Assembly: GCA_963796105.1 (NCBI GenBank)
Contig: CAWCKJ010000010.1
Coordinates: forward strand, 39,620 to 103,619
DNA length: 64,000 nt
DNA from: a candidate division FCPU426 bacterium
GTDB taxonomy: Bacteria > Oederibacteriota > Muellerivitia > Muellerivitales > Muellerivitaceae
Reading direction: 5' to 3'
Position 1 is the first letter of the stretch. The number at the start of each line of letters is the position of its first letter. The notes beneath the pieces were generated by a model, which was not told the DNA's origin, made no database searches, and was given only the letters and a program-made list of their open reading frames with translations. Below, one piece after another: positions 11,978 through 63,038 of the stretch. Both the position numbers and the translations under genes were made by a program.

Positions 11978-13633
11978 GTACTACCTGAATTTTGCACCGA
12001 GTTTACCGATTCCGTGGCCAGATCGGCCTGAATCGGGACCCGACAGTGGCCATTTTCATCAGAAGTGAACTTATGTGCAAAGAATTTTTTGCACCAAGCC
12101 ACTTCTAGGCCGCCCTGGGTCTTTCCAATCGTTTTCGATCAAGGTATTTGAGGAAACCCAATAGGCCCGCTGTCCTATCATCATGGATTGAATACCTCAC
12201 CACATCCCGATGGCCGTGATACTGGATTCGGGCGGCTACAAAGAGCATCTTCAAACGTGCGATCCGAAGGGTATGGTCCGGCATGGTGATCTGTTCCTTC
12301 TCCTGTGGCTTCTTTCCCGGTCGCTTTTCTTTTCCACAATGGCCCACCATTAGTTTCATCCACCTCCAGAGGTTGTAAGCCAGCATCACGATCTGGAAAA
12401 AAGCATGGTGGCTTTGGAAACTCTTAGAGGGAATTGCTAATAACCCCTCCCGTTGCGCCTCACCAATCAGGTTTTCCACATCCGCGCGCAGGTCGTATTC
12501 CTCAACCACCCGATGGGGTGCTCCCAGACAGTTGGTCGCGAAGATTCGGTAGACATATCCTTCCATTTCAGGAAGGCTCAATTGTTTCTCCCGCGCTTTT
12601 TCATCCAGCGTCCTCATCGCCACAAACCGGACTGGTTGTTGCCAGCCTATGGGTTGATGGACACATTCGTTGTATTCGTGTTCTCCATGGCGGTACCAAC
12701 CCTTTTTCGTGAAAGGCGGGTCATGCCGCTTGTTCCCGAAGATGAAAGAAAACCCTTCTTTTTCACAGGCTTTCACGCTTTCCCAGCCGATCATTTCACC
12801 GTCACCGCGCACCAGAATCGTCCGGACACAGGACGGCAAGAGTCGCCGGAATTGTCTAATTTGGCGGGCCACTTCCTCAGAACTAAGGGTGGTTCCGCGT
12901 CTTTGGGTTCCGCACAAATATTCCCGGGTTTCCTGGAGAAAACACAGAATGGGCCTCAGTCCCTTCTTGCCCCGGTGCTTGGGGTTGTATCCTTTTCGGC
13001 TTCCCTCGATATTTCCGTAGACCGTTGCGGTGGTGGTATCGATGTTGATCTCCACCTTCTTGGGGGCATATTTCACCTGTCCCCAAACCTTGGCCCGTAA
13101 CGCCCCACTCAGATTCAGCAACGATGCCGACTGCCCGATCCCCAGCGACCTCAGGTATCTCCAAAAAGTTGTCACTACCGGCAACAAGGGAACCCGCAGT
13201 AAACCGCACAGCATGACCTCACCCCGCAGGTAGGCAAAATGGCCAAGTCTTTGGAACCCGATGAAAAGAAGCATTAGGATGCCGCTTACCATCCGGTAGT
13301 GGCCCAAATTCGGAAGGCGTTTAGGTGCGGCATAGTGTTTTTTGAATTCCCGCTCAAAATCAAGAAGGTCGAACATCTTCGCCAATGCCAACAATCCGCC
13401 AAAAGCTGTTAGGCGGTCTTCGCAAATACCTACGGGAGTATTGGCCGTAATCTTGGGCGCGATTCTCCCGTTTCGATTGGCTTTTTTCTGGACTTGCGGG
13501 TTTGATTTCTGAGGCGTATCTTGACGTTTCACCATCTGGGGGACCCTCTTTTAGGATGAGTTGGCTTCGCAACCCTTATCCTATAATGGTTTCCTAGATG
13601 GTTTTTTTATTAGGCGCAAAATTCAGGTACTAG
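11978..13633 (-). mobile_element. IS1380-family-like insertion sequence (transposase CDS 12105-13535, minus strand)
   Basis: 476-aa DDE transposase with an IS1380-like N-terminus (RLTAFGGLLALAKMFDLLDF). Imperfect ~20-bp terminal inverted repeats: gtactacctgaattttgcacc at 11978-11998 and ggcgcaaaattcaggtactag at 13613-13633. Confidence 0.55.
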
Positions 13634-14828: not shown

Positions 14829-16129
14829 TGGTGTGCGCCCCAAACCTTGGACAGTTTTTACTCCAAGTTGAGAATAGGTTTTCCGGCGATTGGTTTGAGT
14901 GACTTTAAAGCCTCGAACTCCTCAGGCGGCATGTAGCCGATAGAAGAATGCAACCGTTTTTTGTTATACACCTCCTCGATGAAGTATGGAAGTCTTTGAA
15001 GCACTTCCTGATAAGTTTCGTAATTGAATAGATGCACCTCCTCATATTTCAAGGTTTTGAAAAAGGATTCCGCATTTGCATTGTCGTAAGGGTTGCCTGT
15101 CCTGGACATGCTGATCCTTAATCCTTTGGACTCAAGCAGGGCCACGTAATCCCAGCAGGCATATTGCACCCCTCTGTCTGAATGGTGGATGCATCCCGGA
15201 AGAGGATTCCTTTCCTCTAAAGCCATGCGTAAAGCCGAAAGCGACAACTCCCGATCCAGTCTCTTGGAAACCGCCCACCCGATCACCTTTCTGGAAAAAC
15301 GATCCAGAATGGCCGCCAGATAAACAAAGCAAGTGAGGATTCGGATATAGGTAATATCCGCCACCCACACTTGATTGACAGCAGTTTCTGCCACCCTTTC
15401 CAAGAGGTTGGGGAACACCGGCAGGTCGTGATTGGATTGGGTGGTTTGGATCTTGAACCTTTTCCCCCAAATAATAGGGTAAAGACCGTATTTCCTTACC
15501 ACCCGCCGAATCCGTTTGGCGTTAATCCTTAATCCCTCCCGTAAAAAGTGGTGGTAGAGCCTCCGATAGCCGTAGTAGGGGAAGGTCAATCTCACCTGCT
15601 CGATTCGGTTCTTTAAGTCCAAATCTCTTTGTTCCTGAATCTCCGGTTCACTTTTAAGTGCAGAATAATAGGTACTTCGAGGAAGCCCCATCATTTGGCA
15701 TCCTCTTGAAATTGAGCCAAATTCCTTGAGGTGATCACGGAGGTATCGAGCTTTCTCTGGTTTTCCGCGTATTTTTGGAATTTTTTTAAAAGGTCTATCG
15801 CCATGATCAATTCCCCAATCTTGGCTTTGAGTTTCTCATTCTCTTTTTCCAATATTTTTTCGTGAAGGGAAGGTTTTTCAACCAAGGTTCCTTGGCGATA
15901 TTTATCGCGCCAACGGGTTATAACGCTTGGATTGAGCTGGTATTGACGAGCAGCTTCATTGAGCGATAGGCCAGTTTCTACCTCGTGGACGACTTGTTCT
16001 TTGAAATCAATACTGAACTTCCGTCTTATTTTACCCATTTGGAAATGCTCCTTTGGGGGGTTACCCCTTGAGCCGTTTCCCTATTCTCTATTTTTTGCTT
16101 CAACTGTCCAACTTGTAGGGCGCGTTCCA
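14829..16129 (-). mobile_element. IS3-family insertion sequence (orfA 15691-16038, orfB/rve integrase 14858-15694, minus strand)
   Basis: OrfA is an HTH transposase. OrfB has the DDE integrase core. orfA stop and orfB start overlap as ATGA. ~45-bp imperfect terminal inverted repeats begin TGGTGTGCGCCCC (14829) and TGGAACGCGCCCT (reverse complement, ending 16129). 3-bp direct duplication GAT at 14826-14828 and 16130-16132. Confidence 0.85.
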
Positions 16130-22057: not shown

Positions 22058-23464
22058 TTATAAGCTTTGAAATATTTTGTCGGCGGCGGTTTCGCCCGCG
22101 GCGATGGCGTCCGGGATGCCGATGCCCTTCAGGCCGTTTCCGGCGATATATAGCCCCTTGGTCTCATCGGCTTTGTGTGTGAGGCGTTCCACCAGATCCG
22201 CGTGGCCTGGACGGTAATAGGACATGGAGGAACTATATTGCGCCAGGTGGTGGACCATCGGCCTGTTGCGAAGTTTCAAGAGAGGCGAGAGCTCGATCAA
22301 TACATCCTCCAGAAGGGCTTCCTCCCCCTCCTTTTGAGCCACAGCGACCGCGTCATCCCCGAGGAAAGCCCGTAACAACACTGTTCCTTCGGGGGCCCGG
22401 CCTGGAAATTTTTGGCTTGCGAAAGAGCAACCCACGATCATTCTTTTTTCCTTGGAAGGGACAACGAAGCCAAATCCATTTAAGGGGTGCCCCACATCCT
22501 GACGCCGGAAACCGAGGTTCAGGGTCGCGGAGTCGTGCGCTGGTATTTTTTCCAACAGGCCATCCCAATCAGGGTCCAGGTCTTTCAAGAGAGGCCGCAT
22601 TTTGGACGGCTGAATGGCCAATACTACCTTATCCACTTCCCGTGTATGGCCTTGGGAGGTAATCTGCCAGGTGCCGTGACCGCTGGGGATAAGGGACTCC
22701 GCCGGGTGCCTCATCCAAAGGCACTCAGGGGGAATCTTGGAAGCCATTTTCTCCGCGAAGGACTGCATGCCTTCCTTGAATGAAACAAAGAGGGAATAAC
22801 GGGCCCCTGAGACGCGCGGCTGGGAATGCAGACGCTTGGCCGCCATGGCCTTCAACAAGGAACCGTACTTGATTTCCATTTCCTTGAAACGGGGAGCGCA
22901 GGTATCCAAACTCAAATCAAAGGGGTCGGCGTTATAAACCCCGCCCATGAGGGGCTGGGCCAGGTAGTCGAATACTTCCTTGCCCAGGCGCCGGGTGACG
23001 AAATCCCCGATACTTTCATCCCCAGGTTCCTTGCGAACAGGAACGAAGGTCTCGAGGCACGCCCTGAGTTTTCCCCGGATGGAAAGCAAAGGCGTGGTCA
23101 TGAGGGGAGTGAGACGGGAGGGAGCCATCAGGTAGAAGCCCTCGGGGATCGGGTGGATCTTTTCCCCCTTGAGGATGAAGGATTGCTTGATATCCGGGTT
23201 GGTCCCTACAAGCTGGTCATCCATGCCCATTCGCTTGACCATGGCCATCCCAGCCGGTTTCTCGGTAATGAAGCAATCGGGGCCTTCCTCCATGAGGAAC
23301 CCGTTTTTACGGGCTGTCCCCAGGGTGCCCCCGGGTTTACCCGCGCCATCCAGGATGTTCAAATCCAGATGGAGGTCCTTGCCTTGTGAAAGTTCCAAAA
23401 GGCGGAGCGCCGCGGCTAAACCGCTGACTCCCGCCCCGATGATTGCGACTCGTAAAGAGTTCAA
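22058..23464 (-). CDS. hemY: protoporphyrinogen/coproporphyrinogen oxidase (HemY/CgoX-type, FAD-dependent)
   Basis: N-terminal FAD dinucleotide-binding motif VAIIGAGVSGLAAALRL. About 470 aa after trimming. Start proposed at TTG 23464 with AGGAAA about 10 nt upstream. The 549-aa ORF in the track runs upstream through the IS4 end and is probably an artefactual extension. Confidence 0.7.
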   Translation of the reverse strand: MNSLRVAIIGAGVSGLAAALRLLELSQGKDLHLDLNILDGAGKPGGTLGTARKNGFLMEEGPDCFITEKPAGMAMVKRMGMDDQLVGTNPDIKQSFILKGEKIHPIPEGFYLMAPSRLTPLMTTPLLSIRGKLRACLETFVPVRKEPGDESIGDFVTRRLGKEVFDYLAQPLMGGVYNADPFDLSLDTCAPRFKEMEIKYGSLLKAMAAKRLHSQPRVSGARYSLFVSFKEGMQSFAEKMASKIPPECLWMRHPAESLIPSGHGTWQITSQGHTREVDKVVLAIQPSKMRPLLKDLDPDWDGLLEKIPAHDSATLNLGFRRQDVGHPLNGFGFVVPSKEKRMIVGCSFASQKFPGRAPEGTVLLRAFLGDDAVAVAQKEGEEALLEDVLIELSPLLKLRNRPMVHHLAQYSSSMSYYRPGHADLVERLTHKADETKGLYIAGNGLKGIGIPDAIAAGETAADKIFQSL

Positions 23465-23569
23465 TGTGTTTATGTTTCCTTTCACTCTTGTCCTAAATAA
23501 AGGCCTAAAAAAAGACGCCTCCGATTGAAGTAGAATTGGGTTTGATGACAGCCCAAAGCAACGGTTACC

Positions 23570-24850
23570 AGCCGTCGCTACTTCAAACATACGGAGGCGC
23601 TTTTTTATGGTACCACCAACCAGTCTATTTGCCCAAGTGTTGAAACTCGTAGACCGAACCGCTTTTGAGCGAATCGTGCGAGAGATTGAAGCCGAAAAGC
23701 ACTCCAAGGGATTCAGTTGCTGGGATCAGTTTGTTTCCATGCTTTTCTGCCAGATGGGAGCAGCCCATTCCTTGAGGGAAATCTGTGGCGGCCTCAGTAC
23801 GGCCCTTGGGAAATTGACCCACTTGGGTCTTTGCAAAGCTCCCACTAAATCCACCTTGGCCTATGCCAACACCAAGCGTTCTTGGCGGGTTCAACAAAAG
23901 CTTTTTTACCATTTATTATCGAAGTGCCAGTTGTTGGCGGCCACCTCAAAAAGAAAATTCAGGTTTAAAAATCCTCTTTATAGCCTGGATTCCAGCACCA
24001 TCGACCTTTGTTTGTCAGTGTTCGACTGGGCGAAATTCCGTAGAACCAAAGGGGCCATCAAACTCCATCTTCTGCTGGACCATCAGGGGTACTTGCCCTG
24101 CTGGGGACTCGTAACGGAGGGAGGCACGCATGACGTGAAGGTGGCCCAAAAGCTCGATTTTCCAGTGGATTCAATCGTGGTGATGGATCGGGGGTATGTG
24201 GATTTCTTTCTTCTGGCCCGATGGACATTCCAAGGCGTGTGGTGGGTGACCCGGGCCAAGATCAACATGGCCTACGAGGTGGTGAAAAGCCTGACGGTTC
24301 CGAAAACGGGCAACGTCCTGAAGGACCAGGTGATACGGTTGACGACGTTTCGGTCACATGAAGCCTACCCTAAAGAGATGCGACGGGTGGTGGTATGGGA
24401 CGAAGACCAGAAGCGGGAGTTGGTGTTCCTGACCAACCACATGGGTTTTGCCGCCTCGACGGTGGGTGCCATTTACAAGGAACGTTGGCAGATCGAGTTG
24501 TTTTTCAAGGCTCTCAAGCAGAACCTCCGGGTAAAAACTTTTGTGGGTACCACTGAGAATGCCGTTCAGACGCAGATTTGGACAGCATTGATTGCCATGC
24601 TACTGTTGAAGTTCCTTCAATTGAAGAGCCGGATCGCCTGGAGTTTATCCCACTTGGCTGCCATGCTACGGATGAACCTGTTGACCTATCGTGATTTGTG
24701 GGCCTGGTTGGATGCACCGTTCCTAGTGGCGAGACTGGAACCCTTGGAAAAGCAGATGGAATTAATACATTCTTAATTTGGACAGCATCAGGACGAAAGA
24801 GGGGGGCTTATCCCAGAAAATTCACGAGCCTGTCCTAAATCGCTTGTTTT
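23570..24850 (+). mobile_element. IS4-family-like insertion sequence (transposase CDS 23607-24776, plus strand); boundaries approximate
   Basis: 389-aa DDE_Tnp_1-type transposase with DRGY and ERWQIELFFKALKQ motifs. Terminal inverted repeats could not be defined by eye. Confidence 0.5.
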
Positions 24851-24905
24851 CCTGGGAGGTTCAAAGACAAATAGGTTTATCTAGGACAGCAGTGGTTTCC
24901 TTTAA

Positions 24906-25886
24906 TTAAAACTTCAAATCCGAGGCTTCCTCCACGAGGGAAACCAGCATTCCAATGAAAGAAGGGCGGGTGCCAACTGTTTCCGCCCGGACCATATTGA
25001 TCCCGACTTTTTTGGCGCGGGAATAAGCCAGGATGTCGATGTCATAAAGCACCTCGGCGTGATTCACTAAAAAGCCGATGGGAGCCACTACGCAAGCCTC
25101 CAACCCTTCCTTGGAGCGGCGCTCCAAGAAATCCCCCAGGTCCGGTTCCAACCAGCGGTCCTCCGGACGTCCGGAGCGGCTGGTATAAGCCAAGTGGAAA
25201 TAGGGCCATCCCAATTTTTCCTTCACAAGGCGGGCGGTTTCCTCGAATTGGGCCACGTATGAGGATTGGTTGGCGACCGCGCTGGGAATGCTGTGGGTGG
25301 AGAAGATCAACTCGGCCTTGGCGGCTTTTTTTTCCCTTGGAAGCAGTTTTGATATGGCGATTTTGATTTCCTGCTCTATGGCGCGAATAAAACCTGGACG
25401 GTTGTGCCATTCGGGGGCATAAACCACCTCGGGAACGGATTGGCCCGCGGCTTTAAGCGCGTCCTTCGCCTCGTCCACTTTCAGGATGTATTTTGTGAAT
25501 GACACCTGGCTTCTAAAGGGAGCCATGATGATGGCGAATATATTTTTTTTACCTTCTCGGGAAAGACTTTCCAGGGTTTTGGAGATCGTAGGGGAAGAAT
25601 GGGCAAAGCCCACGGTGACAGGGATATCCATTCCCCGCGCCTTCAAGAGTTTTTGGAGGCAGGCGGCTTGGAATTGGGTGAGTTGGCTGTAAGGGGAGAA
25701 ACCTCCGATTTGTTTGTATTGCTCGACGACTTTTTCCAGTCTCTCGTGGGGAATGTTGCGCCCTCGCGTGACATCCTCCAGGAAGGGAAGGACATCCTCG
25801 GGTTTTTCGGGACCGCCGAAGCCGATCAGCAGAACGGAGTCAAATTTAATTTGGGTCAAGTTCATTTCCTGTAAAAGATAAAACAT
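24906..25886 (-). CDS. hemH: ferrochelatase
   Basis: VLLIGFGGPEKPEDVLPFLEDVT N-terminal ferrochelatase signature and conserved His/Glu region. 326 aa. Confidence 0.85.
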   Translation of the reverse strand: MFYLLQEMNLTQIKFDSVLLIGFGGPEKPEDVLPFLEDVTRGRNIPHERLEKVVEQYKQIGGFSPYSQLTQFQAACLQKLLKARGMDIPVTVGFAHSSPTISKTLESLSREGKKNIFAIIMAPFRSQVSFTKYILKVDEAKDALKAAGQSVPEVVYAPEWHNRPGFIRAIEQEIKIAISKLLPREKKAAKAELIFSTHSIPSAVANQSSYVAQFEETARLVKEKLGWPYFHLAYTSRSGRPEDRWLEPDLGDFLERRSKEGLEACVVAPIGFLVNHAEVLYDIDILAYSRAKKVGINMVRAETVGTRPSFIGMLVSLVEEASDLKF

Positions 25887-25904
25887 ATTTTAGCTGGAGG
25901 ATGT

Positions 25905-26115
25905 ATTTGTCATTGCGAGGAACGAACTTTGTGAGGAAGCAACCACAGTTCATTGGTGGTTTTTGTTTTAAACGGTCAGACAAATCAACCTTGCCGGCAT
26001 ATTAACAACCATTAACTGAGGTTGTGCTGGGACCTTTGGCCCTAGCATGGTTGGCTGGAAGCCAACCACTTCAAGTCTGTCGCTAAAACCAATGAAAGAC
26101 GCTCCTCGCAATGAC
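25905..26115. repeat. ~210-bp element bounded by 17-bp inverted repeats (TGTCATTGCGAGGAACG / CGCTCCTCGCAATGACA) with internal hairpins
   Basis: 16 of 17 positions are complementary. Internal stems GGTTGGCTGGAAGCCAACC and AACCAC...GTGGTT. Lies between hemH and hemDE. Confidence 0.5.
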
Positions 26116-26222
26116 ACCTAAATACATCTTAACTTTTTGTCTAGGGTATTAACTATATAATTACCTTTTTAAATCCCATGAATCCCGTGTATCCGTGGCA
26201 AAATTTATTCCGTGATTCGTTT

Positions 26223-28139
26223 TTAAAGCTTAAAAGTTTTAACCGTATCGATCAAGGCGCGGACATTTTCCATGGGTGTCTCAGGCAGGATGCCGTGTCC
26301 CAGGTTGAAAATGTGTCCTGGCCTGCCGTTGACTTTCCTGAGTATTTTCTCGGCTTCTTTACGCACATTAAGAGGATCGGTTAAAAGAACTTCGGGGTCC
26401 AGATTACCCTGGATCGCCACCTCGCCCAATTGCTTCCAGGCCTTGGCCAAATCCACATGGCAATCCACGCCGATCACTGTGGCGCCGGTTTTAAGGATAT
26501 CTGGGTAGAAGGGTTCGGTATGAATTCCGAAATAAATAATGGGCACACCAGGCTTCAATCCGCTGATGAGGATTTGAAGGAAGGGAAGGACCAGGCGTTT
26601 GTATTCATCGGGGGTCAGGATGCCCACCCAGGAGTCGAACAATTGGAGGGCTTGGGCACCCGCATCCACCTGGGCGTTCAGGTAGGAAACAGTGGCCTTG
26701 ACGATCCGGATCATGAAATCATCCCAGGCCGATATGCCCTCGCTTAAAAGAGTTCGGGTCTGCGCGAAATCCTTGGAGGCCCCGCCTTCCAGCAAATAGG
26801 AGGCCACCGTGAAGGGGGCGCCGGCGAAGCCGATCAAGGGAATGTCGGGTTTTAAGCGGGACCGGATGATCCTCACGGCTTCCATGACATATCCCAAATC
26901 CTTCTTCGCGTTGACTTCCCGGAGGCGCTTGAGGTCGGAGGAGCCCCTGAAGGGATTGCGGATGACAGGCCCCCCTTTCTCGGCGAACTCCAATTGGAAA
27001 CCTAGGGGCTCGGTGATCAATAGAATATCGGCGAAAAGAATGGCGGCGTCCACGCCGAGGACTTCCTGGGCTGAAACCGTGGCTTCCGCGGCGAGCTCCG
27101 GCGTTTTGCAAAGCTCCAGGAAAGAGACTTTGGATCGTATTTTCTGGTATTCGGGAAGGTAGCGGCCAGCCTGTCGCATGATCCAAATGGGGGGGCGGTA
27201 GGCCGGCTCCCGGCGGCAGGCTTTCATGAAAAGATTATCCGGAATTCGGAAAGGTTTCTTGGGGGCGGCTGACACTTCCAAAGTCATGTGGCTCTTGAAC
27301 TCGTGCAGTTCCTGGCCCCTTCGAGCGGCTTCCCTCACGAGAGACGCCATGTTGTGCTGGTCCGGCTCGAAATCGACCGTGAATCCGTGGCCCTGGAGGG
27401 TTTCCGTGACGGAAGTGCCCACGGACCCGACCACCACGCGGGGGAAAGCCGCCATCAGGGATTCCAGGCGGCCTAGATTCTCCGCGAGTTGAACCAGGTT
27501 GTGGACCTGATACCCGCTGGTAAAGAGGGTGATCGCGACTTTGCCCTTGATGATGGATTCGATCAACTGGACCAGGGGTTTGGTGTTGTCGGGCAGGGCC
27601 CAGAGCTGGATGGGAACACTTTCCACTTCTTTCGCGCCCAATGCGCGGAGATTCCTCAACAAGTCCAAATTGGAAAAACCGAATTCCTGGACCGCCACCC
27701 TTTTGTCTTTCACGTCCGCGAGCGCGGAGGGAATTTCCCTCCAGTTTTTCAGCTCTGGAATTTTGATGGAAGCCTTTAATCCGTATTCAGCCAAAACCTT
27801 GGGGAGGTGGGGGTCGCAGGACACCAGGACACAGCGTTTGAGGGCCTTGGTGATATGACTCTGGGGAAACTGGGCCTCCAAGGCCTGGAAAAAAGCGCGT
27901 GTGCCGGTTTCGGAAACGAGAACCAGGATGTCAATGAGCCCTTCCCGGAGACGCTCAAAGAAGACGTATGCTTCCTTGTTTTCCTCCGGATGCATTTCCC
28001 TCATGGCGGGGGCAATCAAGGGTTTGCCGCCGTGATGGAGGATCAAATCCTCCATTTCCTTGGCCATGAGGCTCTCGAAAGCCGCCACTGTCAAGTTCCT
28101 AAAATTGTGCTTTTCTTTGGATTGGGACGGTCGCGTCAT
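26223..28139 (-). CDS. hemDE: bifunctional uroporphyrinogen-III synthase (HemD) / uroporphyrinogen decarboxylase (HemE) fusion protein
   Basis: C-terminal half carries the URO-D signature PPIWIMRQAGRYLPEY. N-terminal ~260 aa shows the two-lobed HEM4 pattern (DILVLVSETGTRAFF ... ITLFTSGYQVHNLV ... VVGSVGTSVTETL). Single uninterrupted reading frame. Start trimmed to ATG at 28139. Confidence 0.7.
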   Translation of the reverse strand: MTRPSQSKEKHNFRNLTVAAFESLMAKEMEDLILHHGGKPLIAPAMREMHPEENKEAYVFFERLREGLIDILVLVSETGTRAFFQALEAQFPQSHITKALKRCVLVSCDPHLPKVLAEYGLKASIKIPELKNWREIPSALADVKDKRVAVQEFGFSNLDLLRNLRALGAKEVESVPIQLWALPDNTKPLVQLIESIIKGKVAITLFTSGYQVHNLVQLAENLGRLESLMAAFPRVVVGSVGTSVTETLQGHGFTVDFEPDQHNMASLVREAARRGQELHEFKSHMTLEVSAAPKKPFRIPDNLFMKACRREPAYRPPIWIMRQAGRYLPEYQKIRSKVSFLELCKTPELAAEATVSAQEVLGVDAAILFADILLITEPLGFQLEFAEKGGPVIRNPFRGSSDLKRLREVNAKKDLGYVMEAVRIIRSRLKPDIPLIGFAGAPFTVASYLLEGGASKDFAQTRTLLSEGISAWDDFMIRIVKATVSYLNAQVDAGAQALQLFDSWVGILTPDEYKRLVLPFLQILISGLKPGVPIIYFGIHTEPFYPDILKTGATVIGVDCHVDLAKAWKQLGEVAIQGNLDPEVLLTDPLNVRKEAEKILRKVNGRPGHIFNLGHGILPETPMENVRALIDTVKTFKL

Positions 28140-28257
28140 GAAATGCAGTATAAAAGTGAAAAAAATGAAAATCCACATAAGCTTAGTGCGGGTATAATAG
28201 AAACAGGCTTGGTCATACGGGTCAAAGTCGTCATTTTTACAAACCAGCCGTATAGAG

Positions 28258-29619
28258 GTGAATATGAAGTGTCCTGGCTGCGGCTTTGAGCAGGCGGATG
28301 GGCGCATCGATTGCGACCGTTGCGGCCTGGTCTTTGAGAAATGGCATCAAAGGCATCCGGACCCGGTTCCCGCGGCGGAGAATCCGCCAGCTGCGACCGA
28401 AGGGACCCCAGCCCCTGCGGCACCCACTCCTCCGAAGCCCGTTCCCGTGGAACCTGCGGCGAAGCCAGAGCCTGTTACCGCTCCCGTGCCCGAGAAAAAG
28501 CCGTCGAGCCCTATCCCCGCTGAGAAAAAAGAGGAAAAGCCGGCCGTTGCGATATCCACGCAAACTCCCGAACCTAAGATATCCGCGCCCCCTGTAATTA
28601 TTCCTGAACCCGAATTTGAAAGTGAACCGTTTACCCCGTCGGCGCGTCAATCTCATTCGGGAATGAACAAAAGGATCATTTCTTATCTCGGGGTAGGAGT
28701 TGTACTGGCCATACTCATATTCATTGTCTCGAATTACCTCATCACGGAAAACGGAAAGCAGGGACCCCGCTGCCTAGTAACTTGGGGCGAGAACGGGGAA
28801 GACCAGGGGCAAATGGACTCGCCGATCGCGGCGGCTGTGGACCAGGACCGAAACCTATACGTTTCAGACCAGGGCAACAACCGGATCCAGAAATTCGATT
28901 CCAACGGAAAATTCCTTCTCTCCTGGGGAGGGTCCGGGACGGCAGCCGGAAAATTCAATAATCCGGTCCAATTGGCCGTGGATACGAAAAATTTCGTTTA
29001 CGTCGTGGATGGCGGCAACCACCGCGTGCAGAAATTCGACTTGAACGGGGTTTACCAGACGGTCTGGGGCGGATTCGGCTCCGACCCCGGCCAGTTCAAC
29101 CAGCCCTGGGGTTTGGCGATCAGCCTGAAGGACCAGATTTACGTGACGGATCAAAACAACCACCGAGTGGAGGAGTTCGACGCGGACGGGAAATGGATCA
29201 AGACCTGGGGCACCAATGGAAAGGACCAGGGTAATTTTATCCAGCCGCGCGGGATCGCGGTGGACGCGGACGGGAACGTTTATGTGGGGGACAACAACGA
29301 GAGGATCCAAAAGTTTGACGCCAATGGGACCTTTGTCGAGCAGACCGGGAGTTTCGGGCAGGAGCCGGGACAATTCCACAAAATCCAGGGTTTGGCCGCG
29401 GATAAAACCGGGCGCCTATACGTGGCTGACGGCGGGAATTACCGGGTCCAGGTTTTTGACGCCCAATTGAAACCCTTGACCGCCTGGGGGCATTTAGGCG
29501 AGAAGCCGGGGTTCTTCAACTTTCCCGGCGGAATCGCGGTGGACTCGAGCGGGTTCATCTATGTCACGGATTATCAAAACGACAGGGTCCAGAAGTTCGC
29601 TGAACTCGTCATCAAATAG
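28258..29619 (+). CDS. NHL-repeat beta-propeller protein with N-terminal double zinc ribbon, Pro-rich linker and one TM helix
   Basis: CPGCGFEQADGRIDCDRCG zinc ribbon. PAPAAPTPPKPVPVEP linker. TM segment GVGVVLAILIFIV. At least 6 NHL repeats (NNRIQKFDSNGKF, NHRVQKFDLNG, NHRVEEFDADG, NERIQKFDANG, NYRVQVFD, NDRVQKF). Confidence 0.75.
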   Translation: MNMKCPGCGFEQADGRIDCDRCGLVFEKWHQRHPDPVPAAENPPAATEGTPAPAAPTPPKPVPVEPAAKPEPVTAPVPEKKPSSPIPAEKKEEKPAVAISTQTPEPKISAPPVIIPEPEFESEPFTPSARQSHSGMNKRIISYLGVGVVLAILIFIVSNYLITENGKQGPRCLVTWGENGEDQGQMDSPIAAAVDQDRNLYVSDQGNNRIQKFDSNGKFLLSWGGSGTAAGKFNNPVQLAVDTKNFVYVVDGGNHRVQKFDLNGVYQTVWGGFGSDPGQFNQPWGLAISLKDQIYVTDQNNHRVEEFDADGKWIKTWGTNGKDQGNFIQPRGIAVDADGNVYVGDNNERIQKFDANGTFVEQTGSFGQEPGQFHKIQGLAADKTGRLYVADGGNYRVQVFDAQLKPLTAWGHLGEKPGFFNFPGGIAVDSSGFIYVTDYQNDRVQKFAELVIK

Positions 29620-49174: not shown

Positions 49175-50239
49175 ATGGTTAATATTGACACGCTTTTGCG
49201 TTTAATGTTCGAAAGAAATGCCTCCGACCTCCACATAACTGCTGGTGCCCCTCCGATGTTAAGAGTGGACGGTGTCATCACTCCCACTGAATATGAGAAA
49301 CTCAGGCCCGAGACTACTCAACAATTGATATACAGTATTTTGACGGACGAGCAGAAAGAAAAATTCGAAAAAGATAATGAATTGGATGTTTCTTTTGGGG
49401 TCGAAGGCGTAGGCCGAGTCAGGATGAATGTTTTCCAACAAAGGGGTGCTGTAGCGGCCGCTCTTAGGAATATACCCACCACTATTCGTAATTTTGATGA
49501 CCTCAAGTTGCCTGCTATTGTTCAAGATATTGTTAAATTGCCCAAAGGCCTGGTATTGGTGACCGGGCCCACGGGTTCTGGAAAATCGACGACTTTAGCG
49601 GCCATGATTGATTGGATTAACTCGAATCGTCAAAGTCATATCATCACCATTGAGGACCCGATTGAGTATGTGCACACGCATAAATCTTGTATCGTGAATC
49701 AACGGGAAGTCGGAACTGACACGCACACATTTACTTCGGCTTTAAAATATGCATTGCGGGAAGATCCGGATGTGATATTGATCGGGGAAATGCGTGACTT
49801 GGAAACGATCAATGCGGCCTTGACGATTGCAGAGACGGGACATCTGGTATTTGCGACTCTTCATACAGTGGATGCGATTCAAACGGTTAATCGCATTATT
49901 GATGTGTTCCCCGCATCTCAACAGCAACAGGTTCGGGCGCAAATATCGTTTGTCCTTCAATCTATTTTATCTCAACAGCTGCTTCCAAAGGCATATGGTT
50001 CCGGGCGTGTTGTGGCAATAGAGGTTCTTATACCAACTGCGGCAGTTCGGAATTTGATAAGGGAAGAAAAAATCCATCAAATTTATTCTGCTATGCAAAC
50101 GGGTACGGAATATGGGATGCAAACCATGAACCAAGCCCTATTTGAGCTTTATCAAAAACAACAAGTAAGTTACAACGAAATATTCTCCAGAACTTTGGAT
50201 CCGAAGGAATTGCAGCGCATGGTAAAAGGTGTCATTTAA
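49175..50239 (+). CDS. pilT: type IV pilus retraction ATPase
   Basis: PilT N-terminal signature (ASDLHITAGAPPMLRVDG), Walker A GPTGSGKSTT and AIRNLIRE motif. Confidence 0.9.
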   Translation: MVNIDTLLRLMFERNASDLHITAGAPPMLRVDGVITPTEYEKLRPETTQQLIYSILTDEQKEKFEKDNELDVSFGVEGVGRVRMNVFQQRGAVAAALRNIPTTIRNFDDLKLPAIVQDIVKLPKGLVLVTGPTGSGKSTTLAAMIDWINSNRQSHIITIEDPIEYVHTHKSCIVNQREVGTDTHTFTSALKYALREDPDVILIGEMRDLETINAALTIAETGHLVFATLHTVDAIQTVNRIIDVFPASQQQQVRAQISFVLQSILSQQLLPKAYGSGRVVAIEVLIPTAAVRNLIREEKIHQIYSAMQTGTEYGMQTMNQALFELYQKQQVSYNEIFSRTLDPKELQRMVKGVI

Positions 50240-50265
50240 TAAAATAAAAGAAAAAGGTTAATCCC

Positions 50266-51480
50266 ATGCCTCTCTTTAAATTCAAAGCTCGGAACAATTT
50301 AGGGAAGGTAACTGAGGGCACTCAGGAAGCCGAAAATGAAGCGGCTGTTGGGGCTCTATTGCGCCAGAGGCGATTAGAGGTTATTTCTGTTTCGCCCGCG
50401 AGTAGTTTTGGGGCCATTTTTGCTTCAATGCTTAAAAAAGGTGGAAATGTCAAAACCATTGACATTGTGGTATTCAGTCGACAATTCTCGACCATGATTA
50501 ACGCCGGCCTTCCTATTTTGCAGGGGTTGACGATAGTAGCGGAACAAGCCGAGAATCCCAGTTTTCGTGTCATCATGACTAAAGTCAGGGATGATATTTC
50601 TAATGGCGTCCCACTGTCAGAAGCTATGGCAAAACACCCGAAAGTTTTTTCTGCTCTTTACGTTAATATGGTTAAGGCTGGGGAACAAGGCGGTATTTTG
50701 GACGTTATTTTTGAAAGGTTGTCGGAGTATTTGGAAAAATCAGAGGGAGTAAGCCGAAAAATTAAATCCGCCATGATGTATCCCGCAGTTGTTTTTTCTG
50801 TTGCGATTTTGGTTGTGATATTTTTGATGGTAAAGGTAATTCCGACTTTCGAAACAGTATTTGCGGGTTTTGGCGCTAAGTTACCAGCTCCGACATTGGT
50901 TGTTATTGCTATCAGTCATTTTTTAACGAGCAAAAAAGCAGTTTTTATTTTGATTTTTGGAGTCGCTTTTTATGTTGCGTTACAATTATACAGAAAGACA
51001 AAAACAGGTGCGTATAATTGGGACAAAATGATGATGAGTTTACCTGTCCTTGGTGTTTTATTACGGAAGGGTGCAGTCGCTAAATTCGCTCGAACTTTGG
51101 GTACTTTGATAAAATCCGGGGTCCCAATTATGGATGGACTTGAAACAGTCGCCAAGACTTCGGGAAATTTAGTATTGGAAAGAGCGATATTCCACGCAAG
51201 AGATTCTGTGAAAGAAGGAAAAACCTTAACTCAACCACTAAAAGATAGTAATGTGTTTCCACCCATGGTGACACAAATGATCAATGTTGGGGAAGAAACA
51301 GGATCGCTAGATACCATGTTATCAAAAGTGGCTGATTTCTATGAAGATGAGGTGGATGCGGCGGTGGAAGGATTAACATCTATTATCGAGCCGATTTTAA
51401 TTGTTTTTTTAGGGGTTACCCTTGGATTTATAGTGGTGGCCATGTTTATGCCAATATTTATGTTGGGAAGTATCGTTTAA
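50266..51480 (+). CDS. pilC: type IV pilus inner-membrane platform protein (GspF/PilC family)
   Basis: Two T2SSF repeats, 3 TM helices. 404 aa. Confidence 0.9.
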   Translation: MPLFKFKARNNLGKVTEGTQEAENEAAVGALLRQRRLEVISVSPASSFGAIFASMLKKGGNVKTIDIVVFSRQFSTMINAGLPILQGLTIVAEQAENPSFRVIMTKVRDDISNGVPLSEAMAKHPKVFSALYVNMVKAGEQGGILDVIFERLSEYLEKSEGVSRKIKSAMMYPAVVFSVAILVVIFLMVKVIPTFETVFAGFGAKLPAPTLVVIAISHFLTSKKAVFILIFGVAFYVALQLYRKTKTGAYNWDKMMMSLPVLGVLLRKGAVAKFARTLGTLIKSGVPIMDGLETVAKTSGNLVLERAIFHARDSVKEGKTLTQPLKDSNVFPPMVTQMINVGEETGSLDTMLSKVADFYEDEVDAAVEGLTSIIEPILIVFLGVTLGFIVVAMFMPIFMLGSIV

Positions 51481-51683
51481 CAAAATTGTGTATTATATAA
51501 AAATATTTCGATTGTTTTCCATAAAGGGGGAATATATTAAGCAGCTAGTGGATGTTTTTTGGGCGGAGTTTTAAACTCGCAGAACTTCATACTAAACATT
51601 TACGCAAAACAAAGTTAAACAGGAGCCGTATTTTATAATAGGTTTTAAAATAAAATTCTAAGTTTTGCGATGAGGATGAAATC

Positions 51684-52784
51684 ATGAGTTTTTTTTCAAA
51701 AGGTGTTGTTGGTTTAGACATCGGAACTTCAAGTGTTAAGGTTGTTCAATTAAAACAAAATGCTGGCCAGTGGCGACTAGTTTCTATGGGAATTTCCGAA
51801 TTGCCGAAGGAAGTGCAGGAAAATGCCAATCAGGGAGCTTCGAAAAACATAATAATCGACTCCATAAAAAAACTCTTTAAAGAGAGCGGCATAAGTACAA
51901 AAAAAGTGGTGACTGCTTTATCGGGTGATTCGGTCATAATTCGCTATGTAAAACTACCTTTTATGACTAATGAGGAATTGAAGGCGGCGATTCCGAGGGA
52001 AGCGGAACAATATATCCCGCTAAACTTGGATCAGGTTGTTCTTGATTTTCAGATTTTGGGTGAAACCCAGGAAGATGGACAAAAAAAATTAGACGTATTA
52101 TTAGTTGCCGCGAAGGTTGATGTGGTTGATCAACATTTATCCCTTTTGAAATCAATTGGGTTGACGCCTTCTATTATTGATGTGGATGCGTTTGCTTTGG
52201 AAAATGCATATGAAATAAATCGAACTGAGCAGGGAGAAGAGACAATCGCTTTAATTAATCTAGGCGCATCTTTGACGACCATCAATATACTTGAGGGAAA
52301 AAATACCAGGTTTACACGTGATATTCCAGTTGCCGGAAATGATTTTACCAAAGAAATTCAAAAGGAGTTTAATTTAAAGTTTTCTGAAGCTGAAGAGCTA
52401 AAAAAGTCGCATGGCGCAATTTCCATGGAGGAAGATGATTTTAATTTATCTGCAATTACTCAAAAAGATGATCGGGTTTTGAGAATGTCAGATGTAATGA
52501 CTCCGGTGTTAAACAAACTTTTGGGCGAAATTCGACGTTCATTTGATTATTACGAAACACAATCCCGGAAGAAAACAGTTGAGCGGGTTATCCTTTTAGG
52601 GGGGAGCGCGAAATTAAAAAATGTGAATAGGTTTTTAGCGAGCAAGTTAGGCATCCCAGTAGAGAATTTCTCCGCTTTTAGGAACATCGAGGTTGGTAAA
52701 AACATTGACTCGGAACAACTATCTGAAAAAGAGGTTTATATGGGGGTCTGTTTGGGCTTAGCACTTCGGCAAACGGAATCTTAA
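51684..52784 (+). CDS. pilM: type IV pilus assembly protein PilM (actin-like ATPase fold)
   Basis: N-terminal VVGLDIGTSSVKVVQL and C-terminal ILLGGSAKL actin-fold motifs. Position upstream of pilNOPQ. Confidence 0.85.
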   Translation: MSFFSKGVVGLDIGTSSVKVVQLKQNAGQWRLVSMGISELPKEVQENANQGASKNIIIDSIKKLFKESGISTKKVVTALSGDSVIIRYVKLPFMTNEELKAAIPREAEQYIPLNLDQVVLDFQILGETQEDGQKKLDVLLVAAKVDVVDQHLSLLKSIGLTPSIIDVDAFALENAYEINRTEQGEETIALINLGASLTTINILEGKNTRFTRDIPVAGNDFTKEIQKEFNLKFSEAEELKKSHGAISMEEDDFNLSAITQKDDRVLRMSDVMTPVLNKLLGEIRRSFDYYETQSRKKTVERVILLGGSAKLKNVNRFLASKLGIPVENFSAFRNIEVGKNIDSEQLSEKEVYMGVCLGLALRQTES

Positions 52785-52787
52785 TAC

Positions 52788-53342
52788 ATGATAAGAATAA
52801 ATCTAATACCGGTTAAGGAAAAGAAGAAACGTAGAGAATTATTCATTGTTTTCTGCGTTGTGATTGTATTGGTTTTGATAGCTTTTGGTATGGCTTGGGT
52901 TTATGGTTCGCGTATGAGCGAGAAAAATAATCTCAATAAAAAGATTAAACAAGTTGAGGATGAATCGAAGGAATATGAGGAAAAAATAAACGAAGAGAAA
53001 GACCTCGAGGCCAAAGAAGCCAGTTTGGAAACATTTAAAAAGACTGTAAAAGGAGTGACGGATACACAAAGAAAAGTTCTGGTTGCCATGGATCAATTAG
53101 CTTTAAACCTTCCGGAAGGGGTTTGGCTTACTAAGGTGAGTCAAGGTCGTGATAAAGATAGTGATTTATACACTGTCGAGGGGTATTCTTATTCTGCGCA
53201 CGACTTGCAAATTTACTTGAATTCCCTCCGAAAACCAGGCGGGATGTTCAAAGATGTTCAGCTTATAACCACAGATAATATTTTATCTCTCGCTGGTAAT
53301 AAATTCAAAATAACTACAAGAGTTATGGATACCAACTCATGA
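52788..53342 (+). CDS. pilN: type IV pilus assembly protein PilN
   Basis: INLIP N-terminus (MIRINLIP), single TM, coiled-coil. Synteny. Confidence 0.7.
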   Translation: MIRINLIPVKEKKKRRELFIVFCVVIVLVLIAFGMAWVYGSRMSEKNNLNKKIKQVEDESKEYEEKINEEKDLEAKEASLETFKKTVKGVTDTQRKVLVAMDQLALNLPEGVWLTKVSQGRDKDSDLYTVEGYSYSAHDLQIYLNSLRKPGGMFKDVQLITTDNILSLAGNKFKITTRVMDTNS

Positions 53343-53884
53343 AAATCACTCCTTTACAGCAATATATAATATTGGGTGTAGTGTTTTTCGCTGGGTTAGT
53401 ATTTTTGTATTATCAATTTCTTCTAAAACCTTTGAATTCAGATATCGTGAATTTAAGAACAACTTTGGAACAAAAACAAAAAGATTTAGAAGAAGCTAAG
53501 AAAATCGTGGCTAAATATGTTGAGTTTAAAAAGCGCGCGGATTCTGTTCAAAGAGAATTGGAATACATTCAAAATAGAATCCCGAAAACAATTGACAGGG
53601 CGAAATTGATGGAGATGGTAAATTTAATCCAAGACAGGACAAGAATTGTGTTAACTAATTTTTCTTTTTCAGGAAGTCCAACATCGAAAGATTCTTGGGT
53701 GGAAATTCCAATAAAGTTATCATTCAATTCGAGTTTTAAAGGATTATTGGAATTTTTATATCAAATTAACATTTCGAATTTACTTATGATAGTTAGGGAT
53801 GTGAATATTTCCTCGCAGCTAGATCCGCTTGGAATTTATACTTTAAAAGCGGATTTGATATTAAACGGGATTCAAGCGAAATGA
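53339..53884 (+). CDS. pilO: type IV pilus assembly protein PilO
   Basis: Single N-terminal TM, coiled-coil, C-terminal ferredoxin-like domain. Synteny. Confidence 0.65.
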   Translation: MKITPLQQYIILGVVFFAGLVFLYYQFLLKPLNSDIVNLRTTLEQKQKDLEEAKKIVAKYVEFKKRADSVQRELEYIQNRIPKTIDRAKLMEMVNLIQDRTRIVLTNFSFSGSPTSKDSWVEIPIKLSFNSSFKGLLEFLYQINISNLLMIVRDVNISSQLDPLGIYTLKADLILNGIQAK

Positions 53885-54339
53885 AAATTCAAACAAAATC
53901 GAATAAAAAGATTCTTTTATTCGCCATTTTTGGAATAGGTATAACCGCGCAATATTCCGCCTTGTGCCAGCAACAAGACGTCCCGGAACCGGTTTTCATG
54001 AATTTTTCTATTCAATCTCCTTATATTCCGACTTATCATGGTCGAGATCCCTTTTACCCATTGCAACCCTATTCGTATGATATTTCTAAAAAAGTATCAA
54101 TCGCCGATTTGGATTATCGGGGGATATTAAGTTTAGGTGACAAGGATATGGCTTTATTCTCTTGGAAGCACGATGGCAATTACAGATTCTTATTAAAATC
54201 CAGAAAATTGTATTGTAGTTCAAACAGTACAAAAAGTTCAAACGAACAGGTTGTTGATGGTATTGTGGGGGACATTACTGGCACCGAAGTTGTTTTAATA
54301 CAGGGCGAGCAAAAGATTGTTTTTTCCAGAAGAAAATAA
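53881..54339 (+). CDS. pilP: type IV pilus assembly protein PilP (putative, lipoprotein-like)
   Basis: Signal peptide and small beta domain. Position between pilO and pilQ. Confidence 0.45.
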   Translation: MKIQTKSNKKILLFAIFGIGITAQYSALCQQQDVPEPVFMNFSIQSPYIPTYHGRDPFYPLQPYSYDISKKVSIADLDYRGILSLGDKDMALFSWKHDGNYRFLLKSRKLYCSSNSTKSSNEQVVDGIVGDITGTEVVLIQGEQKIVFSRRK

Positions 54340-56752: not shown

Positions 56753-56775
56753 TTTTATCCTTGTTTGTAAATTGA

Positions 56776-56809
56776 TAAGCGTCTTTATAATAAAGACGCT
56801 TATTTTTTT
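56776..56809 (+). terminator. intrinsic terminator after pilQ
   Basis: TAAGCGTCTTTA-taa-TAAAGACGCTTA perfect 12-bp stem followed by TTTTTTT. Confidence 0.75.
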
Positions 56810-56899
56810 GCAGGATTTGTGATTCAAACCTTAATTAGAAAACCTATACACACAATTCATTAGGATTAACTTGTAGCCCGATAATCTTTTAAAAAGGAT

Positions 56900-58069: not shown

Positions 58070-58077
58070 ATTTTCTC

Positions 58078-58593
58078 ATGATTCCCCATGATAACATCAT
58101 CTTAGTTGGTTTTATGGGTTCTGGAAAAACGACCACAGGTAAAGAATTGGCGCAGTTGATCCGGTACAATTTCTGGGATATTGATCACTGGATTGAGGAA
58201 AAAAATTTCAAGAAAGTCAGCGACATATTCCGTGATGAGGGTGAAGCTTCATTTCGAATTCAAGAAAAAGAAGCTATCCAATGGTTTACAGGAAGGAAAA
58301 AATACGTAGTTTCAACAGGTGGAGGTATTTGGATTAATGAAGAGAATCGTAAGCAGCTGTTGGAATTGGGTTTGTGTATATGGCTAAAAGTATCGCCCAA
58401 ACAGGTTTTTGATAGGATCAAACATAGTTTGCCTCAGAGGCCGCTTTTGGCGAGGGAGCCGGACCCATTGAAAAAGATTACAGAACTGATGGAAATGAGA
58501 AATGTCTTCTATGAACAAACGCAATTCTCGATAAATACTGACGGAAAACAGCCCAAAGAAGTCGCAATCGAAATAGAAAAAATATTGGAATGA
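58078..58593 (+). CDS. aroK: shikimate kinase
   Basis: P-loop GFMGSGKTT, DxD and LID region. 171 aa. pilQ-aroK-aroB-type synteny. Confidence 0.9.
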   Translation: MIPHDNIILVGFMGSGKTTTGKELAQLIRYNFWDIDHWIEEKNFKKVSDIFRDEGEASFRIQEKEAIQWFTGRKKYVVSTGGGIWINEENRKQLLELGLCIWLKVSPKQVFDRIKHSLPQRPLLAREPDPLKKITELMEMRNVFYEQTQFSINTDGKQPKEVAIEIEKILE

Positions 58594-59917: not shown

Positions 59918-59918
59918 A

Positions 59919-61214: not shown

Positions 61215-61258
61215 AATATTTTTCAAAATTTAAAAAGGGTTTAAATTAAGGTTTAAAA

Positions 61259-61618: not shown

Positions 61619-61620
61619 AG

Positions 61621-63005: not shown

Positions 63006-63038
63006 AGAATAGCTATGGCACTTTAAGTGCCAAAAAGA

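Follow-up and report, generated by a model that had tools for sequence, protein, structure and literature searches.

Background

The routes to heme, chlorophyll, siroheme, B12 and F430 have uroporphyrinogen III as their last shared precursor, and both uroporphyrinogen-III synthase (UroS, HemD) and uroporphyrinogen decarboxylase (UroD, HemE), like the principle of fusing consecutive steps of a pathway, are textbook matter. Known fusions of HemD include HemC-HemD and CobA/SUMT-HemD, and in the HemD/HemX fusion (NF005411, [quoted passage not shown]) the HEM4 domain is likewise joined to a partner from the tetrapyrrole pathway. Fusions of consecutive steps, namely CpfC-ChdC (HemH-HemQ) of Cutibacterium acnes and CysG, have been treated as clues to pathway organisation (PMC13564367; PMC7242693). 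A HemD-like domain is also found in the actinobacterial NnaR, together with an OmpR-type DNA-binding domain; according to PMC6277429, which cites a Streptomyces study, NnaR is devoid of HemD activity.

The present study concerns a gene in which a HEM4 domain is followed by a URO-D domain, located in a 64-kb stretch of DNA from a candidate division FCPU426 bacterium (the whole analysed stretch is termed the window, and positions refer to it). On balance we consider it probable that the product is a conserved two-domain protein, a UroS fold attached to a canonical UroD, which heads a hemDE-hemH-hemY cluster and would carry out the UroS and UroD steps in succession.

The hemD-hemE gene and its start

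The fusion gene occupies 26223..28139 on the minus strand, as delimited by the list of open reading frames (ORFs), Pfam and NCBIfam scans and the N-termini of homologues, and encodes 638 aa followed by a stop codon at 26223-26225. In the ORF list, the untrimmed frame (26223..28307, minus strand) comprises 694 aa with zero internal stops. A preliminary description, made from the letters alone, had claimed that a single frame joins HEM4 to a complete HemE and had predicted HEM4 PF02602 followed by URO-D PF01208; the Pfam scan recovers both domains in this order, each above its gathering cut-off and with no stop between them. The motifs quoted there for the two lobes and for HemE (DILVLVSETGTRAFF, ITLFTSGYQVHNLV, VGSVGTSVTETL and PPIWIMRQAGRYLPEY) are all present in the translation.

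The ATG at 28139 (M57 of the 694-aa ORF) is most likely the start of the gene and agrees in alignment with the N-termini of 23 homologues. The 5' extension of the frame (28140..28307, minus strand) had been dismissed as spurious from the outset, a judgement that holds, although its length is 56 codons rather than the 55 first given. Relative to the corresponding locus of an 81%-identical relative (L001), the extension carries two frame-breaking indels, one of 2 nt and one of 1 nt, and positions 28264-28307 are conserved coding sequence of a divergent NHL gene on the opposite strand. The segment is thus best read as a divergent intergenic region plus the start of that NHL gene. A start at the ATG at 28307 was therefore rejected, as its frame is not conserved and the codon falls within the stretch that encodes the conserved N-terminus of the neighbouring divergent gene. 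A GTG start (V18, the one used for the database protein P0001) appears less likely than the upstream start, because distant homologues retain, at the protein level, the GF.GL motif that precedes it. Scanning of 24700-28400 for promoters and terminators gave nothing above chance.

The decarboxylase half and the linker

The complete HemE/UroD domain (residues 301-638; 26226..27239, minus strand) was assigned on the basis of PF01208, TIGR01464 and its catalytic residues. The PF01208 match, at residues 357-691 in the numbering of the 694-aa ORF, scores 398.7 bits against a cut-off of 23.9 (E 2.6e-119) and spans profile positions 3-345 of 346, and the hemE equivalog TIGR01464 is satisfied with 382.6 bits against 302.95; HemE is thus complete, as had been proposed. 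In an alignment of 24 fusions, including that of the window, R322, R326, D371, Y448 and H615 show no variation and S503 almost none. In human numbering, the active site of UroD comprises Arg37, Arg41, Asp86, Tyr164, Ser219 and His339, in the motifs MRQAGR, F(A/S)DIL, SY..EGG, FDSW and NLGHG, and the aligned residues of the fusions would be their counterparts. Judged by its sequence, the UroD half is fully canonical, with intact catalytic motifs.

The two domains are separated by a linker of some 15 residues (about 286-300; 27240..27284, minus strand), which was located by model confidence and by the gap-rich part of the alignment (columns ~330-400), in which the length and sequence of the linker vary among homologues. 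The full-length model (pTM 0.62) consists of two confident domains and a low-confidence linker, with pLDDT of 50-61 at residues 281-300 and below 50 at residues 289-296; the linker looks flexible or disordered in this model. The junction DNA (27050-27420) is clean, without a stop or frameshift. No hidden stop or frameshift, of the kind that the preliminary description proposed to look for, is seen there, and the junction itself, which had been placed at 27350-27450, moves to ~27240-27284.

Recurrence of the fusion

Both Pfam domains are present in 120 of the 120 homologues listed (45-100% identity), most of them at 96-100% query coverage, and the HEM4+URO-D fusion extends across many bacterial phyla in more than 100 database protein clusters. 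The search for homologous fusions elsewhere, suggested in the preliminary description, was therefore amply rewarded. In the 81%-identical relative, two contigs, one from ENA/NCBI and one from a Logan assembly, preserve the in-frame junction, and hemH and hemY lie downstream of it. In a census of 80 species genomes that carry the HEM4 subfamily of the window, the domain is fused to hemE in 33, encoded by a separate hemD adjoining hemE in 4 and by a stand-alone hemD in 43. The fused genes comprise 32 that are in frame and one (L010) that is interrupted by a run of Ns. Among the loci of this subfamily, hemH follows in 26 and hemY in 23.

Separate but adjacent hemD>hemE genes do occur in some genomes (L028, L035, L039 and L075, one of them with an ATGA overlap), and an assembly or sequencing error might have merged a pair of this kind in the window. 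Such an error is extremely improbable: the in-frame junction recurs in every one of the 120 clusters of proteins listed, which come from many different samples and assemblers, in 32 of the 80 species genomes and on two contigs of the 81%-identical relative, and the linker reads through without a stop and can be aligned with its homologues. Since both domains occur in every listed homologue and the junction is kept on both of those contigs, the fusion is not an assembly artefact, and its recurrence among homologues and in the genome census makes the architecture a common one in public data.

The database family is annotated solely as "uroporphyrinogen decarboxylase". In the literature searched we found no description of a HemD-HemE or UroS-UroD fusion, which does not prove its absence from the literature. 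The earlier suggestion that this is not a described architecture consequently stands as far as papers are concerned, but the fusion is common in databases and in many phyla. It is new only in that annotation and the literature searched have ignored it; the architecture itself is not rare.

Gene neighbourhood

The fusion gene stands at the head of a cluster with the order hemDE-hemH-[IS4 insertion]-hemY. The next gene downstream is the ferrochelatase gene hemH (24906..25886, minus strand; PF00762, 242.7 bits; TIGR00109, 158.6 bits against a cut-off of 124.6). It is followed by an IS4-family DDE transposase (23607..24776, plus strand; DUF4372 and DDE_Tnp_1) and by a HemY-type copro-/protoporphyrinogen oxidase (22058..23467, minus strand, start approximate; PF01593 Amino_oxidase; TIGR00562, 245.8 bits against 97.85). 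The IS4 element is absent from this position in relatives, in which hemY comes directly after hemH; a repeat search revealed no convincing terminal inverted repeats of the element. The window thus contains the same-strand late-heme arrangement hemE-hemH-hemY.

Most of the non-overlapping window ORFs that reach 150 aa were scanned, a set that stops short of the last five ORFs (56900-62460) and of long overlapping ORFs, and no second hemD, hemC or hemQ was detected. The coproheme decarboxylase ChdC/HemQ (Chlor_dismutase), a component of the coproporphyrin-dependent pathway (CgoX, CpfC, ChdC), was likewise absent from the scanned window ORFs of at least 150 aa and from the checked flanking ORFs of five related loci. 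The oxidase models do not separate CgoX from PgoX, and the late pathway that the cluster serves may be either coproporphyrin- or protoporphyrin-dependent.

The synthase-fold half

The HEM4 domain (trimmed residues ~16-285; 27285..28094, minus strand) was defined by Pfam, a profile match, AF2 and Foldseek. The PF02602 match, at residues 84-324 in the numbering of the 694-aa ORF, spans profile positions 2-230 of 231 and scores 75.1 bits (E 6e-21), above the gathering cut-off of 27.5 but below the 98-129 bits of typical subfamily members. A profile built from 20 N-domains matches the Thermus UroS (PDB 3D8N) over its full length (E 2.6e-14); a single-sequence phmmer search of PDB with the N-terminal half retrieved no UroS, its matches being confined to the start of HemE. 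Structure prediction, which had been proposed as a check of this half, supports a two-lobed UroS fold: the AF2 model of the domain reaches a pLDDT of 91.1, and the first 12 matches of a Foldseek search of PDB are without exception UroS structures (Thermus, Pseudomonas, human and Shewanella; E 6e-14 to 6e-9), with matches beyond rank 12 weaker than 1e-4.

A HEM4 domain match alone is no proof of UroS activity. The window domain falls below the cut-off of every NCBIfam HemD equivalog, the best being NF005568 (75.4 bits against 273) and the second best NF004584 (68.2 against 233). The canonical fusions, which score 122-154 bits, likewise miss the HemD cut-offs. With every curated HemD model below its cut-off, the fusions are named only after their decarboxylase, and hemD may as a result be wrongly scored as missing when the pathway is reconstructed in these phyla.

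The NnaR-type NF005568 (PRK07239) ranks first among curated models for the window protein, for three fusions of canonical type and for three stand-alone members, in all cases below its cut-off. This ranking would be expected if the whole HEM4 subfamily, fused and stand-alone, were a non-housekeeping, tetrapyrrole-binding paralogue related to the N-terminal domain of NnaR. Some of its stand-alone members would fit such a role: in Nitrospirota they adjoin FGE-sulfatase and kinase genes, with no heme genes, and some are fused to an APH/AAA_33 kinase. The ordinary UroS model NF004584, however, gives nearly equal scores, and the full-length profile match is to the Thermus UroS, an enzymatically characterised protein that has been solved also as a complex with its product. 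The repeated fusion or adjacency to hemE-hemH-hemY is moreover what would be expected of a real pathway enzyme. We accordingly regard the paralogue as very unlikely and retain the UroS-fold pathway enzyme as the preferred reading of the subfamily.

Divergence of the window copy

In the N-domain alignment, the HEM4 half of the window protein is 39-50% identical to other fusions and 78% identical to that of its close relative P0002. Of the 72 positions with a conservation of 90% or more among 22 other fusions (i.e., excluding the window), it deviates at 20, as opposed to 0-7 in the other fusions, whereas the URO-D half deviates at only 7 of 128. The substitutions include T76S, G77E, R108C, G109D, K111H, Y153F and Y178Q, and fall in motifs that the family consensus has in common with the Thermus UroS (TGVG.R, ARG.K, Q.YG and the Tyr of.YR.). 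Y178, which a weak alignment tentatively pairs with human Tyr168, hardly varies in the family (VYRW motif, aligned with PYRH of Thermus). It is replaced by Gln in the window and by Asn in P0002. A conserved tyrosine of UroS is implicated in catalysis according to PMC7242693, which cites Roessner 2002, and by alignment this candidate catalytic residue is absent from the window copy. Thus, the preliminary identification of HemD holds for the domain and the fold, but the curated HemD cut-offs and the candidate catalytic tyrosine speak against it, and the UroS activity of the window copy is uncertain.

The window and P0002 also differ from one another at several of the deviant sites, which suggests that constraint there is relaxed. 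Over the whole domain, dN/dS is 0.11, compared with 0.08 for URO-D and 0.13 for hemH; despite its divergence, the HEM4 domain is under purifying selection. The divergent half is consequently a candidate for a catalytic domain in the course of becoming non-catalytic. A real fusion in which the HEM4 domain of the window and of its 81%-identical relative is a folded but non-catalytic module, which would for instance bind or hand over uroporphyrinogen, or regulate or scaffold UroD, while a separate hemD resides elsewhere in the genome, would account for the concentration of changes in this half, the substituted tyrosine, the differences between the two relatives and the low Pfam score (75 bits). 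The HemD-like domain of NnaR would provide a precedent, in so far as PMC6277429 reports it. Such a module is possible but doubtful, as the whole-domain dN/dS is close to that of hemH and the fold is predicted with high confidence; the failure to find a second hemD in the scanned part of the window also counts, weakly, against it. Still more tentative, and unlikely, is a broader proposal that unites two claims: that a widespread, undescribed UroS-UroD fusion (or adjacent hemD-hemE) hard-wires the branch point to heme in several largely uncultured phyla (FCPU426, Acidobacteriota, Binatia, Thermodesulfobacteriota, Elusimicrobiota and Planctomycetota), and that the synthase half in the lineage of the window is a pseudoenzyme, serving as a tetrapyrrole-binding or hand-off module on an active UroD.

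Proposed role of the fusion

Under the preferred reading, i.e., a UroS-fold domain that acts ahead of a canonical UroD, the gene most likely originated from neighbouring hemD and hemE genes that lost the stop codon between them. Uroporphyrinogen III would be formed from hydroxymethylbilane by cyclisation in the N-domain and decarboxylated to coproporphyrinogen III by the attached UroD, which is presumably dimeric like the UroDs of known structure. In the fusion, the two activities would be present in a 1:1 ratio and in close proximity, and we propose that the branch-point intermediate would therefore be biased in favour of heme at the expense of siroheme and cobalamin, perhaps with channelling of the substrate.

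A synthase fused to the first enzyme of the heme branch would be a simple genetic commitment of flux to heme, and would offer a natural test case for the metabolic channelling of an oxidation-prone intermediate. The HEM4+URO-D fusion is already abundant in databases. The locus contains a genuine and fairly ordinary fusion of pathway enzymes, with an oddly divergent synthase half in the window copy.

Comparison with known systems

The consecutive-step fusions CpfC-ChdC and CysG involve other steps and other domains than the protein of the window, and have been described, whereas the literature searched yielded no description of HemD-HemE. Unlike NnaR, a transcription factor whose model, NF005568, comes nearest to the HEM4 subfamily among curated models, the window protein has an enzyme as the partner of its HEM4 domain, and no DNA-binding domain. 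As opposed to HemD/HemX, HemC-HemD and CobA/SUMT-HemD, the partner is UroD, an enzyme of the heme branch; a CobA fusion would tie uroporphyrinogen III to the other branch, that of siroheme and B12.

With the UroS of Thermus thermophilus (PDB 3D8N, 1WCW), the N-terminal half shares the two-lobed fold and a profile match over the full length, but in the window this domain is fused to the next enzyme of the pathway and several of the shared motif residues are substituted. The closest resemblance is to the HEM4+URO-D family of the databases (e.g., P0003, P0059 and P0088, and the FCPU426 loci L003, L005 and L007), which has the same domain order, a length of ~640 aa, the same linker position and hemH-hemY neighbours. 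In FCPU426 genomes, the synteny with the window reaches as far as the flanking methyltransferase, aminotransferase and pseudouridine synthase genes. Best database matches point, like this synteny, to an FCPU426-like affinity. Compared to the other HEM4+URO-D fusions, the window is distinguished by an IS4 element and an NHL-repeat gene inserted in the region of the cluster.

Architecture and start of the hemDE gene

An uninterrupted minus-strand ORF of 694 aa (26223..28307) encodes a HEM4 domain (PF02602; residues 84-324, 75.1 bits, gathering score 27.5) and, in the same frame, a URO-D domain (PF01208; residues 357-691, 398.7 bits). This is the HemD-HemE order proposed in the preliminary description, and the motifs quoted there are all present in the translation. 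The junction DNA contains neither a frameshift nor the hidden stop between two genes that had been named as a possible pitfall. With the NCBIfam hemE equivalog TIGR01464 the fusion scores 382.6 against a cut-off of 302.95; all its matches to the HemD equivalog models of NCBIfam lie below cut-off, the top one being NF005568 (75 vs 273).

In an alignment of 24 fusion proteins, the homologues begin about 10-15 residues ahead of a conserved GF.GL.VAAFES motif, which matches a predicted start at the ATG at 28139 (M57 of the long ORF). Upstream of this codon the DNA is conserved with that of P0002, an 81%-identical relative, yet 2-nt and 1-nt indels break the frame, and the ATG at 28307 falls inside the conserved N-terminal zinc-ribbon coding sequence of a divergent NHL-repeat gene. 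The 28307 start was therefore rejected, and the extra upstream codons (56, rather than the 55 first counted) are non-coding for the fusion gene, as had been supposed. The T-rich 42 nt directly upstream of the start (28140-28181, minus strand; ATGTGGATTTTCATTTTTTTCACTTTTATACTGCATTTC) are about 90% identical to those of the same relative, although coding-region dS is about 1, and carry a TATACT -10-like hexamer about 10 nt ahead of the ATG. No Shine-Dalgarno sequence precedes the 28139 ATG, and a consensus promoter scan did not flag the stretch, which could be the promoter of a leaderless or short-leader mRNA.

Distribution of the fusion

Homologous fusions, anticipated in the preliminary description, are common: each of the 120 listed homologues, at 45-100% identity and for the most part 620-690 aa long, has both Pfam domains, and those that are named are called only 'uroporphyrinogen decarboxylase'. 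The same in-frame junction is seen in P0002 on two contigs, one from ENA/NCBI and one from a Logan assembly. A fusion N-domain profile, run against one genome per species, matched at least 600 stretches. Among the matches listed, 578 encode a relative; the top ones belong to candidate division FCPU426, and further ones to Nitrospirota, Acidobacteriota, Binatia, Thermodesulfobacteriota, Elusimicrobiota, Omnitrophota, Planctomycetota, Armatimonadota, Latescibacterota and Spirochaetia. The 80 loci retrieved from these stretches comprise 32 in-frame fusions to HemE, 4 separate but adjacent hemD>hemE pairs (spacers 0-75 nt, one ATGA overlap) and 43 stand-alone HemD genes (~280 aa). One further fusion, in an Acidobacteriota MAG (L010), is interrupted by a run of Ns at 2594-2993; this is a scaffold gap, and a real stop was rejected. 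Fusions that arise from neighbouring genes usually leave such a range of arrangements. Given the 120 homologues, the two P0002 contigs and the 32 fused loci, an assembly artefact is excluded for practical purposes. Stand-alone and fused forms are mixed among the 779 clusters of a 50%-identity library that match the profile at E <= 1e-30.

The stand-alone HEM4 genes of Nitrospirota lie in a context unrelated to heme. They lie immediately downstream of an FGE-sulfatase-domain gene (L038, 4951-6858; L041, 4981-6861; L016, 5078-8496), and in L016 the HEM4 member is upstream of an APH + AAA_33 kinase. HEM4 is fused to such a kinase in protein cluster P0133 (816 aa), and in P0129 a GT4 glycosyltransferase stands ahead of HEM4.

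Fold of the HEM4 half and the linker

A single-sequence search of the PDB returned no match for the N-terminal half. A profile of 20 fusion N-domains matched Thermus thermophilus uroporphyrinogen-III synthase (UroS; 3D8N, 1WCW) almost from end to end (E 2.6e-14). The AlphaFold2 model of the window N-domain (pLDDT 91.1, pTM 0.76) bears out the motif-based HemD call: in a Foldseek search of the PDB, UroS structures take the first 12 ranks (Thermus, P. aeruginosa, P. syringae, human, Shewanella; E 6e-14 to 6e-9), followed by unrelated periplasmic-binding-type folds at E >1e-4. TM-scores against the UroS structures are moderate (0.44-0.58), as expected because UroS is a hinge protein. We regard the predicted UroS fold as secure.

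Both domains are also confident in the full-length model, where pTM falls to 0.62 and the linker (~residues 286-300) has a pLDDT of 50-61. Linker length among homologues ranges from ~25 to 70 residues. These features point to domains tethered flexibly and give no indication of a fixed inter-domain channel. In the alignment of fusion proteins (columns ~360-385), a conserved insert of ~20 residues, IAYSNGVDTGNW+RIDM.W, occurs in P0059, P0067, P0077, P0086, P0107, P0111 and others, which are fusions of the Thermodesulfobacteriota/'Deltaproteobacteria' type; the window clade is without it. The insert may form an additional structured element where the two domains meet.

A canonical UroD and a divergent HEM4

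The UroD half is canonical, with the MRQAGR, FADIL, SY..EGG, FDSW and NLGHG motifs conserved in the alignment of 24 fusions, and is off-consensus at 7 of 128 family-conserved columns (other fusions 0-13). The HEM4 half deviates, in the window and in P0002 alike, at 20 of the 72 positions that are >=90% conserved among 22 other fusions, which themselves deviate at 0-7. Its Pfam score (75 bits) is below that of other subfamily members (98-129 bits). The substitutions, among them T76S, G77E, R108C, G109D, K111H, Y153F and Y178Q, sit in motifs common to the fusion family and Thermus UroS, and several of the sites carry different residues in the window and in P0002. Y178 aligns with the tyrosine of Thermus PYRH and, on a weak alignment to the human sequence, presumably corresponds to human Tyr168. 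A tyrosine of this type has been flagged as a possible UroS active-site residue (PMC7242693).

Loss of catalysis in the window lineage, with the domain persisting as a folded module for binding or scaffolding, is the main alternative to an active UroS and the less likely of the two. NnaR, whose model (NF005568) is the nearest curated one to this HEM4 subfamily, offers a precedent, its HemD-like domain reportedly having no HemD activity (PMC6277429). Against this, UroS tolerates extensive substitution and an essential active-site residue has not been identified (PMC7242693). Purifying selection acts on the whole HEM4 domain between the window and P0002 (dN/dS 0.11, with 0.08 for URO-D and 0.13 for hemH; dS ~1). 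We consider that the gene probably encodes a bifunctional UroS-UroD protein heading a hemDE-hemH-hemY cluster, and infer UroS activity from homology, fold and context. Such a protein would turn hydroxymethylbilane into uroporphyrinogen III and then coproporphyrinogen III, and the fusion would secure 1:1 stoichiometry and proximity of the two enzymes at the branch point.

Gene neighbourhood

Directly downstream of hemDE on the minus strand lies ferrochelatase (hemH, 24906-25886), followed by a plus-strand IS4-family DDE transposase (23607-24776; DUF4372 + DDE_Tnp_1) and a minus-strand HemY-type oxidase (hemY, 22058 to ~23467; TIGR00562, 245.8 vs 97.85). In relatives, hemY follows hemH directly, without the IS element; transcription of hemY may thus be uncoupled by the insertion. 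A repeat search gave no clear terminal inverted repeats for the element. A longer TTG-start hemY ORF (to 23707), which overlaps the transposase, is probably over-extended. The wider order shared with the FCPU426 loci is methyltransferase, small unknown gene, hemDE, hemH, hemY, and aminotransferase or pseudouridine synthase. No further tetrapyrrole gene was detected among the non-overlapping window ORFs of >=150 aa scanned outside 56900-62460, and no coproheme decarboxylase was found near the related clusters.

The divergent NHL-repeat gene (28264-29619, plus strand) encodes a protein with a zinc ribbon at its N-terminus (MKCPGCG...CDRCG), followed by a Pro/Ala-rich spacer and an NHL propeller of six blades. 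The N-terminus is conserved in the 81% relative; the top NCBIfam match of the protein, a ScyF-like model, is below cut-off. No counterpart of the gene was identified at the corresponding site of the FCPU426 loci; the upstream ORFs there encode a 191-aa protein without a Pfam hit and a methyltransferase. Two further mobile-element genes, a DDE_Tnp_1_4 transposase (12105-13535) and an rve integrase-core protein (14858-15694), both on the minus strand, are no more than 12 kb away from the heme cluster, in a region rich in IS elements. At ~50000-64000, G+C drops from ~0.50-0.55 to 0.36-0.43 and the GC skew stays positive throughout; type IV pilus genes at 47-57 kb (pilM/N/O, secretin, T2SSE/F ATPases) span the drop; this break could reflect horizontal acquisition or a chimeric contig.

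Comparison with known fusions

The preliminary description knew of no described HemD-HemE fusion. This stands for the literature searched, key reviews lying outside it, in which no paper describing a HemD-HemE fusion was found; it does not hold for the databases, where the architecture is already plain from precomputed Pfam domains in >100 protein clusters, the window gene being one more member. In the phyla carrying these fusions hemD may be reported missing, because the curated HemD models all score under cut-off on the fusion proteins. Known HemD fusions include HemC-HemD, CobA-HemD and HemD/HemX (NF005411). Described fusions of consecutive steps in the tetrapyrrole pathway include CpfC-ChdC of C. 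acnes (PMC13564367) and CysG (PMC7242693).
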